The translations under genes and the position numbers were made by a program. This document shows positions 1 to 9,298 of a stretch of 37,883 nt of DNA, piece after piece (the first letter of the stretch is position 1; every line of letters begins with the position of its first letter). Under the pieces are notes generated by a model. It did no database searches. It was given only the letters and a program-made list of their open reading frames with translations, and had not been told where the DNA came from. This DNA comes from a virus (lineage: Duplodnaviria > Caudoviricetes): IMG/VR virus record IMGVR_UViG_3300047561_001521, positions 1 through 37,883 of that record; one strand, written 5' to 3'.

Positions 1-99
1 GCCGGCTGGGCACTCGCCGGCTGGGCACTCGCCGGCTGGGCACTCGCCGGCTGGGCACTCGCCGGCTGGGCACTCGCCGGCTGGGCACTCGCCGGCTGG
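1..99. repeat. Perfect 15-bp tandem repeat (GCCGGCTGGGCACTC) x6.6, running off the window edge
   Basis: Six exact units at 1-90 plus GCCGGCTGG at 91-99. Confidence 0.97.
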
Positions 100-222
100 C
101 AGATAGTACGCTTGCCCTATAGTACGGGCACACTACTGGCCACACGGCCTAAAATCATCCAAACTAAACGCAAAAATAAAAAAAAATTGAATGAAAAAAT
201 CACTGTAACCGTTGTTCAAAAA

Positions 223-373
223 ATAACAAATAACAAATTAACCCTAAACAATGGCACAAGCCTTTCCAGGTTAATCCCAAAAATAGGCTCAGGCTATCAG
301 CTTTTAACCCTAATTGACAACATAACAAATAACAAACTAATTTCAATTAATAATATAACAAATAACAAATTAA
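223..373. repeat. Three dispersed copies of ATAACAAATAACAAA(T/C)TAA in an A/C-rich non-coding tract
   Basis: Copies at 223-241, 322-340 and 355-373. Confidence 0.85.
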
Positions 374-433
374 ATTACACAAAAACAAAAACACGCGCAC
401 GCTTTTAACGCAAAAATAAAAATATAAACAACA

Positions 434-463
434 AAAACGGCGCCACCTATTGAACGCCGTTTT
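434..463 (-). terminator. Intrinsic terminator closing the leftward early operon
   Basis: Inverted repeat AAAACGGCG-N12-CGCCGTTTT about 40 nt past the stop of ORF 503-811. Confidence 0.6.
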
Positions 464-502: not shown

Positions 503-811
503 TTAGGTATGAATTGAACCATCGGGCAAAATACAGCCAAAACAATTACAGCCGGGGATCATTCCTTGAATTTCACCAGTTGGAACTTTTAGAATCATGC
601 CATTAAACTTAACGGATTCGGTAATGTAGTAAAAATCAGAAGCGATATGCTTAACGTTTTTATTTTCCATTACCAATATAAAAAATTGGCGCAACTGTTC
701 TGGTGACAAAAAATCTGGATGCTGTGAAACTTGATTACTTCCCCTGAGCCAAACGTTTTCACCAACAAAATCAAGGCGTTGGTAAGACTTGAAAATTTCA
801 AGATAGTTCAT
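503..811 (-). CDS. Hypothetical protein
   Basis: 102 aa ORF whose ATG overlaps the upstream stop (4-nt overlap). Confidence 0.7.
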   Translation of the reverse strand: MNYLEIFKSYQRLDFVGENVWLRGSNQVSQHPDFLSPEQLRQFFILVMENKNVKHIASDFYYITESVKFNGMILKVPTGEIQGMIPGCNCFGCILPDGSIHT

Positions 812-1077
812 GGTTGTTGGGCGGTGGGTGAATTTAGAAAGGCTTTGATTTCTTTGTAAGTTTGCTTGATTTTAACCGCTTTACATGCTCTTTTTATTCC
901 CCCGTCGTCTTTATTAGTGTCGTTGGTGGCCAGACCGTTAGCAATACAATCGGAGAGCTGTTCGGGTGTTTTTCCGCTAGCAGAGTAAGCATATTCTGGA
1001 TCGTTAGCGAATAGGTCAATGTAGGCAGTGGTCAAATGTTGCTTAAAAATGTTTAGATTGACTTGATTGATTGGCAT
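808..1077 (-). CDS. Hypothetical phage early protein
   Basis: 89 aa ATG ORF in a tightly packed operon. Confidence 0.75.
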   Translation of the reverse strand: MPINQVNLNIFKQHLTTAYIDLFANDPEYAYSASGKTPEQLSDCIANGLATNDTNKDDGGIKRACKAVKIKQTYKEIKAFLNSPTAQQP

Positions 1078-1123
1078 GATTGTTGAGCGGTGGGATTGTA
1101 CAATTTTTCAGCGTGGTACATTT

Positions 1124-1540
1124 TTAACCCTTGGAAATTTTACCGTTTGCGGTAAATTCATATTCGTTTGCAATTATTTCATCCGCTACATAATCGTGGT
1201 CATACAACCTATCTTCCAATTCCTTGCTCCAAGCCTCGCCATAAAAGTTCCGAATAGAATTAACGGAAACATGCTCAGCTCCTTGTTGTTCAATGTGATC
1301 AGCTAGAAGAGAATCTGCGCAGTAGCCGGTAAAAATACAATTTCTTGAGTCTTCTATCAGGGTATCACATGCACCATAACGCTTAAAATTTTCAACAGAT
1401 TCTTTCATACTTTCAAAATGCTCTCCACGCCAGGCCGGACTTTGTAACTCACAACTACGCCACCAATCGCGTGCATTTTCTTGAGCTTCAAGACTTAATT
1501 CCTCAAACTTGTAAACCTGAAAACCGATAGTTCTTGGCAT
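1124..1540 (-). CDS. Conserved acidic phage/MGE early protein (VYxFxELSxxAxxxARDW...YEFTxxG family)
   Basis: N-terminal VYKFEELSLEAQENARDWW and C-terminal IIANEYEFTANG motifs, recalled from phage and plasmid leading regions; function unknown. Confidence 0.75.
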   Translation of the reverse strand: MPRTIGFQVYKFEELSLEAQENARDWWRSCELQSPAWRGEHFESMKESVENFKRYGACDTLIEDSRNCIFTGYCADSLLADHIEQQGAEHVSVNSIRNFYGEAWSKELEDRLYDHDYVADEIIANEYEFTANGKISKG

Positions 1541-1575
1541 TGTTTTAAGTGATTAGGTTTGCTGTGAATAAAAAT

Positions 1576-2250
1576 TCAACCACTAGAAAAAACATAAACG
1601 CGGCCATTTCCAGCGTCTACAGTATCATATTCATGCCTTAGCTCACATTCCGCATATTTTTTCCAGTCAATGTAATTTTCTAGGTAGCCCAAGTTATCGC
1701 CAAAATCTTCGTAATGAGATTCTTTAGCATATTCAGCTAAATCGCTATAGGTTCCCATATATTTATCCCTAAAATCTTGGCGAGAGTAAACGGTGTCATC
1801 CTCCTGACATAACGCTGCGTAAGCGCTATCATCATTGTTCCCCAATCTCTCAAAGTTATCCAAATACTCTAAAATCTGCTCAAAGTCCGGCCCGTCTTTT
1901 TGTAAAAACTCGGGAATGCCATCCGTCCATTCACCGATTGAATAATCAGCGTAGTCACCTAGCTTAGATTCTATATCGGTAACGTCAAAACAATTATCTA
2001 ATGAAATCCACTGGGTTTTGCCATTACTGACAACACTAAAACCGTACAAAGGTAATTCTTGAACAGCTTGGCAACTCGAAGAAATCAAGCCTAAATCCTC
2101 CTTAGCCTTAAGCAAGGCTTCGTAGAATGCGGTATAACCGGGCTTCTTGCCATCGCTGCGAACATAACCCGCCGCCAAAACCATAGAAGATTTATCACTC
2201 CACCGATCTTTTATCAGTGAAACTAAGCCAGCGCCAGTAACAGGAATCAT
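1576..2250 (-). CDS. ardA: ArdA-like antirestriction (DNA mimic) protein with an N-terminal cyanobacterial AbrB-like domain
   Basis: C-terminal ~150 aa is very acidic with ArdA motifs (WISL, DKYMGTYSDLAEYA, LENYIDWKKYA, terminal YVF); N-terminal TG..LV...KS.MV.AAGYV...YTAFYEALLKAK matches cyAbrB N-termini. Confidence 0.75.
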   Translation of the reverse strand: MIPVTGAGLVSLIKDRWSDKSSMVLAAGYVRSDGKKPGYTAFYEALLKAKEDLGLISSSCQAVQELPLYGFSVVSNGKTQWISLDNCFDVTDIESKLGDYADYSIGEWTDGIPEFLQKDGPDFEQILEYLDNFERLGNNDDSAYAALCQEDDTVYSRQDFRDKYMGTYSDLAEYAKESHYEDFGDNLGYLENYIDWKKYAECELRHEYDTVDAGNGRVYVFSSG

Positions 2251-2293
2251 GGTAAAAAAGCAAGTGGAAGCCCGATCGGTCGGGCATGGATAA

Positions 2294-2344
2294 ATAATAA
2301 GCGCAAACCGAACCGACCAATGCTGGCCCGTTACAAAATGAAAT
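2294..2344 (-). promoter_or_regulatory. Putative early promoter for the AbrB-ArdA gene
   Basis: Minus-strand TATTAT (2299-2294) with GTAACG 29 nt upstream, followed by a 5'UTR hairpin GCCCGA-N4-TCGGGC (2270-2285). Confidence 0.5.
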
Positions 2345-2346
2345 AA

Positions 2347-2514
2347 TTACACAAACTCTCCATTGGTGCTGGTTTCATTTGGTGAGAGAATTGGTAGAAT
2401 TTCCCAAGTGTCGGTATCAAGCGATTCCGCAAAAAGAATCAAATTGTCTACCGACGAAAATGGACCGTGCAACCTTTGCTCCGTAAACTGTGGGCCGGAA
2501 ATTAGGACGTACAT
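2347..2514 (-). CDS. Small hypothetical protein (55 aa, MYVLISGPQF...)
   Basis: Translated by hand; fills the operon gap and overlaps the upstream ORF end. Confidence 0.5.
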   Translation of the reverse strand: MYVLISGPQFTEQRLHGPFSSVDNLILFAESLDTDTWEILPILSPNETSTNGEFV

Positions 2515-2666
2515 TTCCTGAAAAGGTAAATAAAACGATCGTCAATGGTTACGAATAAATCAGCAGGATTGTAACCTTGTAAGGCAGTTTTGACGTGATC
2601 AGGAAAAATAGGATGATCGCACCCAGGAAATAACTCGGCTTCAATCAGTCCTAATAAATCATCCAT
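2502..2666 (-). CDS. Small hypothetical protein (54 aa, MDDLLGLIEAELF...)
   Basis: Translated by hand; ATG overlaps the end of ORF 2659-3048. Confidence 0.5.
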   Translation of the reverse strand: MDDLLGLIEAELFPGCDHPIFPDHVKTALQGYNPADLFVTIDDRFIYLFRKCTS

Positions 2667-3048
2667 GGTAGTTGTAAGCGTAAATTACATTATCGGCGCT
2701 GAGGTAAGCGCCATCCTCCAGAAATGGCTGTGATTTTGCTACTTCCTTGGCAAAATCGGCAACATGCCTAAATTCATCAGTAATCGAATCGGCAAAACCT
2801 ACGCCGTGACCCATACGGACGCATAACCAAACCCAACCAAGGTCGGGCCAAAAATCTTCTAAGCAAACTTCGTCATCGTCGGGAAATTTTTCAACCAAAT
2901 AATCATTTACCTTGGCAGTGAAATGATCAAATTCATCATTCAACCGTTGCAAGTGTGGACCATGCAAACTAGCGCCAGAATCCAGTAATTTAGCGGAATC
3001 GCCGGAAAGAACTAAAAAATCGTTAGCAAGATCAGCCAAGTAGGTCAC
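2659..3048 (-). CDS. Acidic hypothetical phage protein (WLxxRxGHGxGF motif)
   Basis: 129 aa, about 24 D/E versus 8 K/R; RMGHGVGFAD resembles a recurrent phage early-protein motif. Confidence 0.75.
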   Translation of the reverse strand: MTYLADLANDFLVLSGDSAKLLDSGASLHGPHLQRLNDEFDHFTAKVNDYLVEKFPDDDEVCLEDFWPDLGWVWLCVRMGHGVGFADSITDEFRHVADFAKEVAKSQPFLEDGAYLSADNVIYAYNYHG

Positions 3049-3220
3049 CGCAGTCCTCTGTAGTGTTGATAATTTTGAAGTCGGAGCGGGAAAGTGTAGG
3101 CCAAACCGCCAAGAGATCGGAGATTGCCTGCTCTGCCCCTACGGCAGTCTCAAATAAATTAAGACCGCCGCCTAAATAGTCTGTCTGTCCGTGTGGTGTT
3201 TTCAGGATAATCTTAAACAT
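3032..3220 (-). CDS. Hypothetical protein
   Basis: ATG (MFKIILK) 2 nt after the upstream stop. Confidence 0.6.
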   Translation of the reverse strand: MFKIILKTPHGQTDYLGGGLNLFETAVGAEQAISDLLAVWPTLSRSDFKIINTTEDCGDLLG

Positions 3221-3222
3221 TT

Positions 3223-3429
3223 TTATTCCCCCAAAAATGCAAACATTTGCTCTTTGCATTCTGCCACCGTTGAATAGCTATGGACCTGCCTAACGATACC
3301 ATCACGATTAGCGCAAAATGCGTAGGTGCCAATTGGACCTGTCCCATCGTAAACGCAACCAACATAAACGCCATCCCTGAAAACGTTTTCCAGATAGCCG
3401 TCTCCTGTCAATCTTTCGGAAGTAAACAT
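3223..3429 (-). CDS. Hypothetical protein
   Basis: ATG start MFTSERL preferred over the longer TTG-started ORF; first gene of the leftward operon. Confidence 0.6.
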   Translation of the reverse strand: MFTSERLTGDGYLENVFRDGVYVGCVYDGTGPIGTYAFCANRDGIVRQVHSYSTVAECKEQMFAFLGE

Positions 3430-3537
3430 AACAAAACCAATAAGTGGAAGAATCATCCAAACCGGATGACGGGCCAATCCTGCAGCAGATCGCTAGCCCT
3501 GGCCAGCGCCGACCGATAAATCGCAACAATCCGAAAC

Positions 3538-3786: not shown

Positions 3787-3996
3787 TTATTTTAGGGCGT
3801 TCAACCATTGAGCTGCCATAGCCTTGGCAATTCCGGGATAAGTTTTGCTTCGTATTTTCCAGCGATCCACGGATGGTGGTAATTTATTCTGCCCTGAATC
3901 GGTCTGATTTGACCACCTTTCTTTCCCGCAAACAATACGACCTGCAACTCTTTCGCCGTGAATCAAGGGGGGGGGAGATCCTTCAGCCATAAACAA
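3787..3996 (-). CDS. DNA cytosine methyltransferase, C-terminal part (out of frame with 3963-4391)
   Basis: RWSNQTDSGQN and RSKTYPGIAKAMAAQW are the usual C-terminus of this small phage C5-MTase family. Confidence 0.8.
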   Translation of the reverse strand: MFMAEGSPPPLIHGERVAGRIVCGKERWSNQTDSGQNKLPPSVDRWKIRSKTYPGIAKAMAAQWLNALK

Positions 3997-4391
3997 GTTC
4001 TCTTTGAGGCATCGTCGCCAAATTGATATGGCTGTATAATTTGATCCGGCTTTCTGTAGTTTGTGGACATGATTCCAACTGGATTTTCAATTGCCCAGGC
4101 GCAGTTTAATTCCGTAAATTTTAAGAAAAAATTAACAGCTTCAGCAGTTAGGATTTTCCTTTCCGGCCTTCTGTAATTCCAGTGCTGGCCGGAAACCGAC
4201 AAGTAAGTGCATGGAGGATGAGCAATAACTAAATCCCAATTATCAAATAATATATTAAAAACATCGCAAATGATATGATATTCACTTTCTGTGTCCGCTG
4301 GAAGCAAGTCGCACGAATAAGCATCTGCCCCTAGAAGCCTGAATTGATCACGAACAATTCCACTGCTTTCGCACGCAATCAAAACTTTCAT
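3963..4391 (-). CDS. DNA cytosine (C5) methyltransferase, N-terminal part, frameshifted at a C9 run
   Basis: VLIACESSG (SAM binding), catalytic AHPPC, AIENP, IIQPYQFG, KRTCLWLK; stops right after the homopolymer. Confidence 0.85.
   Translation of the reverse strand: MKVLIACESSGIVRDQFRLLGADAYSCDLLPADTESEYHIICDVFNILFDNWDLVIAHPPCTYLSVSGQHWNYRRPERKILTAEAVNFFLKFTELNCAWAIENPVGIMSTNYRKPDQIIQPYQFGDDASKRTCLWLKDLPPP
3967..3975. repeat. G9 homopolymer at the methyltransferase frameshift
   Basis: aatcaa-GGGGGGGGG-agatcc. Confidence 0.95.
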
Positions 4392-8572: not shown

Positions 8573-9298
8573 ATGAGAATTTCTAAAATGCGTTCACTGC
8601 TAAAACGAGCAGACCGGGCCTATCGCGGCGGCTGTCCGATTATGTCTGACCGTGAATTTGATCAGTTGGAGCGCGACCTGAGGGCCGCATGTCCCGACGC
8701 ACTGGAATTAAGAGTTCCTGGTGGTGGTAACGCAATGCTATCACTGGATAAGCCACAGGTTTTTGACTTCGTTAAGCCCGATCGTATTTACGCTATTCAG
8801 CCTAAAATTGATGGCTGCTCGCTTGCCCTGAAATATGTAAATGGTTGTTTAGTTGCTGCGTGGACTCGCTCCGGTCGTGATGTATTGAAATTTGTACGCG
8901 GAATGATTGGTGTCCCTGGTGTAATCACAACCACCAAAACTATCGAAGTTCGTGGTGAGTTGTGGTGGTCGGATCGTAATGTAGTTGCGCAAGTGCTACG
9001 GGGGCTGAAAAATGCTCCCTGTATTTTTCAAGCATTTTCTGTGATTGGCATTGATTGCGATACGGAGGCCGATGCCTTGGAATGTTTGCATGGCATGGGT
9101 TTTTTGGAGATTGAATCTTGGTTTATGTTCGGTGGTCAAATCTCCAGTGATATTTTTAGTCATCAGCGGTCCGATTATCCAACTGATGGAACCGTGATCA
9201 AAGATAATTGCAAAAAATATCAACGACAGGTGGGATCCACCAGCCGCGCCCCATTGTGGGCGATGGCGGTTAAGTATGCCGATCAATTTAATTCCTGA
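8573..9298 (+). CDS. ligA: NAD+-dependent DNA ligase, domain Ia + adenylation domain only
   Basis: AY..G.P.MSD.EFD (Ia), KIDG (motif I), TRSG, EVRGE (III), PTDGTVIK (IV), APLWAMAVKY (V); ends before the OB fold. Confidence 0.85.
   Translation: MRISKMRSLLKRADRAYRGGCPIMSDREFDQLERDLRAACPDALELRVPGGGNAMLSLDKPQVFDFVKPDRIYAIQPKIDGCSLALKYVNGCLVAAWTRSGRDVLKFVRGMIGVPGVITTTKTIEVRGELWWSDRNVVAQVLRGLKNAPCIFQAFSVIGIDCDTEADALECLHGMGFLEIESWFMFGGQISSDIFSHQRSDYPTDGTVIKDNCKKYQRQVGSTSRAPLWAMAVKYADQFNS

Follow-up and report, generated by a model that had tools for sequence, protein, structure and literature searches.

A cyanophage gene family joining a cyAbrB-type N-terminal domain to an ArdA-type DNA mimic: a candidate anti-silencing and anti-restriction protein

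Full-length ArdA, a DNA mimic, dimerises by itself, end to end through its C-terminal domain, and gp5.5 of phage T7 is an early phage anti-H-NS protein. Along with T4 Arn and T7 Ocr, gp5.5 counters a xenogeneic silencer, the means being either mimicry or attachment to the region through which the silencer oligomerises, and unlike the protein described here all three are single-purpose and come from enterobacterial phages. We know of no phage anti-H-NS protein that combines a silencer-derived domain with a mimic. Arn and Ocr appear as early anti-H-NS proteins in a reference title in PMC10746416, a passage of which also ties ArdA to H-NS silencing (citing Melkina 2016), and a passage of PMC13300388 has ArdA binding the repressor AllR. 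Short relatives of ArdA (sArdC and sArdN, PMC12548430) are the closest described counterparts of the short fusions presented below, which match phage anti-restriction profiles. Fusions of ArdA to a proposed targeting domain have also been described, in the ArdC-N polyvalent proteins, which unlike the protein analysed here are large Firmicute proteins; few polyvalent proteins are noted in cyanobacteria, and AbrB goes unmentioned in the main text that describes them (PMC5512222).

On the host side, the reference proteins are cyAbrB1 (Sll0359) and cyAbrB2 (Sll0822), which carry the AbrB-like C-terminal domain PF14250; we know of no function for the picocyanobacterial cyAbrB. In Synechocystis, AT-rich tracts are coated by cyAbrB2, which is also bound at 80 of 125 IS elements and has cyAbrB1 as an interaction partner (passages of PMC11368403), and in vitro cyAbrB1 is a dimer and cyAbrB2 mostly a monomer (passage of PMC9241938). 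For other silencers, H-NST, encoded on a mobile element, and an experimentally truncated CgpS consist of the N-terminal part of a silencer without its DNA-binding domain, and H-NST provides a dominant-negative precedent (passages of PMC7074111).

The protein analysed here (P0001) resembles ArdA (Tn916 Orf18, PDB 2w82; PF07275) in the profile match, fold and acidity of its C-terminal part, and differs in an additional 52-residue host-regulator domain, an eroded first-strand motif and an anti-restriction activity that is putative. With cyAbrB it has in common the picocyanobacterial clade's N-terminal domain, and unlike cyAbrB it has lost the AbrB-like C-terminal domain, has a shortened hairpin loop and matches the canonical clade weakly. 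With H-NST it may share a dominant-negative logic, by analogy, as H-NST belongs to a different silencer family and has no DNA mimic; no Pfam model of the H-NS family matches P0001 at E 0.1.

The window, i.e., the whole stretch of 37,883 nucleotides that was analysed, is a linear virus record with a completeness rating of 32% and a GC content of 0.45. It encodes tape-measure and minor tail proteins, primase, helicase, exonuclease VIII, thymidylate synthase, dCTP deaminase and endolysin, and we read it as a long-tailed phage. Two runs labelled freshwater metagenome contain the window almost entire and are its possible source. The cyAbrB-type N-domain points to a picocyanobacterium, presumably a freshwater one, as the probable host. 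The coordinates, strand, length and quoted motifs of the fusion gene given by a first-pass annotation are all exact. The gene sits in a cluster of small ORFs (Table 1), most of which belong to no known family; this may be an early or host-takeover region. A promoter scan performed at chance (11 found, 10.7 expected).

Table 1. Positions of the fusion gene, its domains and surrounding features in the window
Feature	Position	Strand	Remarks
Fusion gene (P0001, 224 aa), cyAbrB-type N-domain and ArdA	1576..2250	-	Start codon backed by homologs starting with the same residues
Residues 1-52, picocyanobacterial cyAbrB-type N-terminal domain	2095..2250	-	Helices 6-13, 20-26 and 39-52
Residues 53-66, linker	2053..2094	-	Length varies among homologs
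Residues 67-224, ArdA domain	1579..2052	-	Full length by fold
Nine small same-strand ORFs	503..3477	-	Left contig end; several acidic; 42% GC
Strongly acidic small ORF on one side of the fusion	1124..1540		Net -13; further mimic candidate
Strongly acidic small ORF on the other side	2659..3048		Net -16; further mimic candidate
GC-rich 15-nt unit	1..100		Repeated ~6.5x at the contig end
AT-rich repeats	167..437		After the GC-rich 15-nt repeat array
DNA methyltransferase ORF	3963..4391		Covers profile positions 15-170 of 247; possibly broken or frame-shifted
NAD-dependent DNA ligase match (241-aa ORF)	8573..9298		Profile far longer, 656 positions

No Pfam, NCBIfam or PHROG family covers the N-terminal part of P0001, because PF14250 starts only at the last helix of this domain, and the ESM Atlas yielded no usable match for it or for DUF7222. 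Profiles were therefore built for the domain. A host-only profile scores the P0001 N-domain at 31.7 bits, compared to 9.5 for the best shuffle (1878 of 2000 shuffles scored). PF14250 had selected 30 host genes in four picocyanobacterial genomes, themselves reached by motif scan, and 24 of these genes went into the profile; the six genes left out, four of them from a divergent paralog, were missed by the search patterns. Without the last helix the score drops to 12.2, versus 10.2 for shuffles. A profile of phage cyAbrB copies, picked with a motif from the query, gives 49.6 bits versus 5.9 for shuffles. Against the canonical cyAbrB1/2 of larger cyanobacteria (29 genes) P0001 reaches 5-7 bits, within the shuffle range, and its relatives P0008 and P0011 reach 15 bits; thus the link passes through the picocyanobacterial clade. 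The domain is 41-51% identical to 80 host copies found by motif scan of genomes, and by eye all 80 loci are complete cyAbrB genes. By title they belong to picocyanobacteria or unclassified cyanobacteria, bar one cyAbrB gene (L090) in a record titled Bifidobacterium breve that is probably mis-binned. PF14250 is absent from P0001 and from the whole contig, so P0001 is not a cyAbrB. Judged by these profile scores, residues 1-52 are a cyAbrB N-domain of picocyanobacterial type, and the earlier assignment of the N-terminus to cyAbrB stands with that narrowing. As a separate observation, the genomes labelled Cyanobium, Vulcanococcus, Synechococcus and Aphanothece (G001-G004) have 7-13 PF14250 matches each, compared to 2 in the 20 remaining genomes of a phylum sample that gave a match.

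The first-pass annotation had also recognized ArdA at the C-terminus, and both profile and fold agree. PF07275 matches residues 98-214 (E 5.9e-8, 33.9 bits, curated cut-off 27), and phrog_2059, an anti-restriction protein family of PHROGs, matches residues 81-222. In an AlphaFold model of P0001 (mean pLDDT 82), residues 68-224 align to residues 3-165 of ArdA 2w82 (Z 7.4, rmsd 4.0, 145 of 163 aligned), which is the only chain at Z >= 5 among 48,161 and is followed by a row at Z 3.5. The top BFVD rows for the model are mostly antirestriction proteins. Foldseek against the PDB gave no match for either model and missed 2w82, and PDB sequence searches with P0001, A2 and A3 returned nothing significant; the relative P0008 reaches 2w82 by the same kind of search at E 3e-8. 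The domain contains 35 D/E and 12 K/R in 158 residues (22% D/E, net -23). Tn916 ArdA has a first-strand motif that P0008-P0012 keep intact and that is eroded in P0001, though the strands are modelled. Apart from this motif, P0001 matches ArdA in the features of sequence and fold that were checked. The ArdA part of the protein presumably still inhibits type I restriction enzymes. Type I specificity subunits (HsdS) are present in 44 of 101 family genomes, and plain anti-restriction would therefore be enough to explain the ArdA.

A search for the same architecture in cyanophage metagenomes had been suggested, and the architecture does recur in other cyanophages. Eleven homologs have it at 30-84% identity, six at 63-84% (five full length) and five, which carry textbook ArdA, at 30-34%. 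A contig from another study, differing from the window at 110 letters, bridges the domain junction; together with the homologs, this shows that the fusion is not an assembly artefact. Among 67 IMG/VR loci with the N-domain motif, 10 encode the N-domain and a short ArdA and 57 are whole phage cyAbrB genes by eye; all 14 phage cyAbrB genes checked match PF14250, and all five short fusions checked match anti-restriction PHROGs. The short fusion lies beside baseplate-wedge genes in two of these loci (L002 and L014) and beside terminase and integrase in a third (L011). Short fusions also occur in five cultured Autographiviridae, S-B28, WH11-B, 7B11-B (known from a hit table only), S-CBP1 and DSL-LC07, and the listed hosts of fusion-bearing cultured phages include Synechococcus WH7803 and CB0101. 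The gene occupies an early position in these T7-like phages, among small ORFs upstream of RNA polymerase in S-B28 and WH11-B and as the fifth gene (gp5) in S-CBP1.

Most fusions found use a short ArdA of ~110-130 aa after the N-domain. When short ArdA alone was scanned for, the best 80 of 190 loci comprised 75 with the N-domain, 3 without and 2 cut, in a sample that is biased by ranking on likeness to the fused protein, includes four query loci and is redundant (58 distinct N-domains). Short ArdAs without the N-domain were seen in S-RIP1, NATL2A-133 and the Mediterranean fosmid MedDCM-OCT-S04-C24. The N-domain persists beside full ArdA (P0001-12) and beside the short form, the latter in T7-like as well as baseplate-bearing phages. 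Motif scans that covered 25 of 64 genome parts (80 loci kept) and 18 of 64 metagenome parts (80 loci kept) gave no fusion. The N-domain tree is poorly resolved (10 of 55 branches supported) and too weak for independent fusions to be counted; in it, the fusion N-domains have diverged from those of hosts and fall outside the host cluster, with the exception of L021. Database labels of fusion members read antirestriction or hypothetical protein. The first-pass annotation knew of no description of such a fusion, and our searches of open-access main texts gave no description of a cyAbrB-ArdA fusion.

The first-pass annotation took the N-domain for a known oligomerisation domain; no printed support for this was found, and a passage of PMC11368403 states that biochemical data on cyAbrB2 oligomerisation do not exist. 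The P0001 N-domain models as three helices with a shortened hairpin loop in a helix-turn-helix (HTH) arrangement, with a net charge of +2 (+2 to +5 in its close family), and thus it could bind DNA. The fold list for residues 2-57 consists mostly of HTH domains, including DosR, SoxS, AraC and sigma region 4, at Z 2.5-3.5 over ~40-48 aligned residues. No Pfam HTH model matches any of 24 N-domain members. In profile comparisons the N-domain reaches divergent HNH-linked copies at 93.9% and those copies reach the AraC HTH at 74% (from only five motif-picked AraC segments), versus 7% for the direct comparison to AraC. An Lsr2-like reading, made by eye, found no Lsr2 among the 50 fold rows listed. 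The P0001 loop retains Arg31, Lys35 and Lys36. Across 58 distinct N-domains of short-ArdA fusions, core and helix-3 residues are kept at 95-100%, the helix-3 Tyr is invariant, the next Leu-Leu-x-Ala is 97-98% kept, and the invariant hairpin Lys-Lys of hosts is mostly deleted, which would agree with a protein-facing surface having been preserved and a contact to DNA given up.

The N-domain behaves as a mobile module. Prochlorococcus phage P-TIM68 encodes it alone as gp074 (52 aa; L001:2507-2665), a candidate for a natural H-NST-like protein, and in phage B3 gp253 (L220:1168-1596) it precedes a basic C-terminal part. Whole cyAbrB genes, many with a shortened hairpin, occur in viral loci (L004-L068), compared to N-domain matches only in the cultured-phage collection; the domain alone and the whole genes together indicate that phages engage cyAbrB repeatedly. 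Domain partners were counted in the best 150 of 802 representative N-domain matches: ~55 match PF14250 (hand count), 3 HNH_2, 1 TIR, 5 LRV and 1 DUF7222, none match PF07275 at E 0.001, and five match the short-ArdA profile, one of which is a TPR protein and probably a chance match. Many of the remaining matches appear fragmentary or frame-shifted, and some of the fusions to unrelated sequences are probably assembly chimeras or frameshifts. The domain stands in repeats before HNH, between TIR and TPR, and in LRV/HEAT proteins, where DNA-targeting or decoy use is possible; the proteins of these three types are P0059, P0125, P0135, P0107, P0115, P0124 and P0141. The view that a mimic has replaced the DNA-binding domain of cyAbrB is accurate in that the AbrB-like domain is gone and too simple in that the N-domain also occurs alone and with basic, HNH, TIR-TPR and LRV partners and several sizes of ArdA.

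Two further observations concern neighbors of the module. Locus L021 has a second N-domain gene (L021:7911-8312) 4 kb from its ArdA fusion. P0145 and P0165-P0168 join the N-domain to the acidic DUF7222, and the T7-like cyanophage S-TIP37 encodes DUF7222 by itself as gp02, the second gene (L212:1074-1424), in roughly the place that Ocr occupies in T7. Neither BLASTP nor hhalign backed a relation of DUF7222 to Ocr, and Ocr 1s7z ranks 12th of 48,161 chains by fold (Z 3.2, rmsd 4.0, 80 aligned), with a score tied with unrelated helical proteins.

The explanation we favor, with a probability of roughly 50%, is a DNA mimic docked on cyAbrB that relieves silencing and works like H-NST and ArdA combined. 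The shared N-domain would dock the fusion protein onto host cyAbrB, the docked ArdA mimic would be held against the AbrB-like DNA-binding domain, and silencing of the AT-richer phage DNA would be lifted, the hybrid being dominant negative in the way that H-NST is towards H-NS. Host cyAbrB would have to silence foreign DNA as Synechocystis cyAbrB2 does; the description of cyAbrB as a global, nucleoid-like repressor fits that protein (passages of PMC11368403), from a clade that the N-domain matches only weakly. At 0.45, the GC content of the window lies below the median of 0.64 at 20 hand-picked host cyAbrB loci. Co-assembly with host cyAbrB, as put forward earlier, receives a weak prediction: the N-domains of P0001 and a host cyAbrB score 0.42 as a complex versus 0.02 for the best of three controls, with at least 95% of contacts agreeing between runs and a partner pLDDT of at least 83. 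Of 157 solved pairs 116 attain the score mark, as do 2 of 215 mismatched ones; at or below 0.60 it is attained by only 18 of the 157 and by both mismatches. By the tool's own account, a score in the range of 0.42 is wrong more frequently than correct, except where the pairing was probable from the start. Because the paired chains are homologs, passing may reflect no more than a general readiness of the family to pair, and a PDB sequence search gave no solved relative. Arguing against docking are the HTH resemblance, the N-domain repeats before HNH nucleases, the basic loop residues of P0001, the drift from host sequence, the unfused short ArdAs and the type I targets in family genomes. The dual role suggested at the outset keeps its two real domains, and its docking on cyAbrB has the weak support of the complex prediction.

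These objections feed other explanations. None of them excludes docking or the others, and under every one, docking included, restriction enzymes may be a target of ArdA. The N-domain HTH could bind DNA and hold the ArdA mimic on the incoming phage genome for local protection from type I restriction, with cyAbrB as only the evolutionary source of the domain. The HTH rows that fill most of the fold list, the profile chain through the HNH-linked copies to AraC, the repeated copies in HNH proteins and the basic loop residues would all fit such a tether, and passages of PMC5512222 propose that ArdC-N recruits ArdA to injected DNA. However, Z values of 2.5-3.5 reflect a common arrangement only, the direct AraC comparison fails, and the would-be recognition helix presents Ala, Tyr, Glu and Leu in place of basic side chains. 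The loss of most hairpin lysines in short-ArdA fusions also speaks against DNA contact, and an HTH beside a DNA mimic might bind its own mimic, and we consider a tether unlikely. A slightly less likely possibility is that the N-domain pairs only with another copy of itself, so that ArdA dimers become linked into a mimic of greater length or avidity aimed at type I restriction enzymes or BREX, with host cyAbrB not a target. The weak pairing score fits self-pairing equally, the N-domains have drifted from host sequence, and self-pairing could lengthen the short ArdA of most fusions. EcoKI and EcoR124II are inhibited by small ArdAs (passages of PMC12548430). The HsdS genes in family genomes could supply targets. 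Yet self-pairing leaves unexplained why a host-regulator domain is reused alone, in whole cyAbrB and with other partners, and full-length ArdA, which dimerises without help, carries the N-domain too.

It is far less probable that the N-domain is a passenger, the remnant of a truncated phage cyAbrB read into ardA that gives only a translation start or stability. Related phages do have unfused short ArdAs, and the domain is fused to many unrelated sequences, some of them probably chimeras or frameshifts, but the near-complete retention of core and helix-3 residues in the 58 distinct fusion N-domains, and the spread of this conservation over phages of different build, would not be expected of a passenger. 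A broader and tentative extension of the docking explanation, which we hold to be somewhat unlikely as a whole, is that picocyanobacterial cyAbrB is a xenogeneic silencer polymerising via its HTH-like N-domain, and that cyanophages reuse the domain as an address tag. Alone, the N-domain would be a chain stopper; as a tag it would carry full ArdA, short ArdA and perhaps DUF7222, if that is Ocr-like, into the silencer filament, and the HNH and TIR-TPR copies could then serve the opposing side as decoys or sensors.

As far as we know, a phage anti-silencer directed at cyanobacteria has yet to be described. A role of cyAbrB in guarding against foreign DNA is presented as a proposal only in a passage of PMC11368403. 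The fusion family makes both cyanobacterial anti-silencing and this guard role testable, and it does so in cultured phages that carry the fusion (S-B28, WH11-B, 7B11-B, S-CBP1 and DSL-LC07), an unfused short ArdA (S-RIP1 and NATL2A-133) or the domain alone (P-TIM68). Through its N-domain and ArdA, the phage likely disarms a host silencer as well as restriction enzymes. The fusion hints at what the unannotated half of cyAbrB does, and it offers a route by which a DNA mimic could be aimed at one chosen DNA-binding protein.
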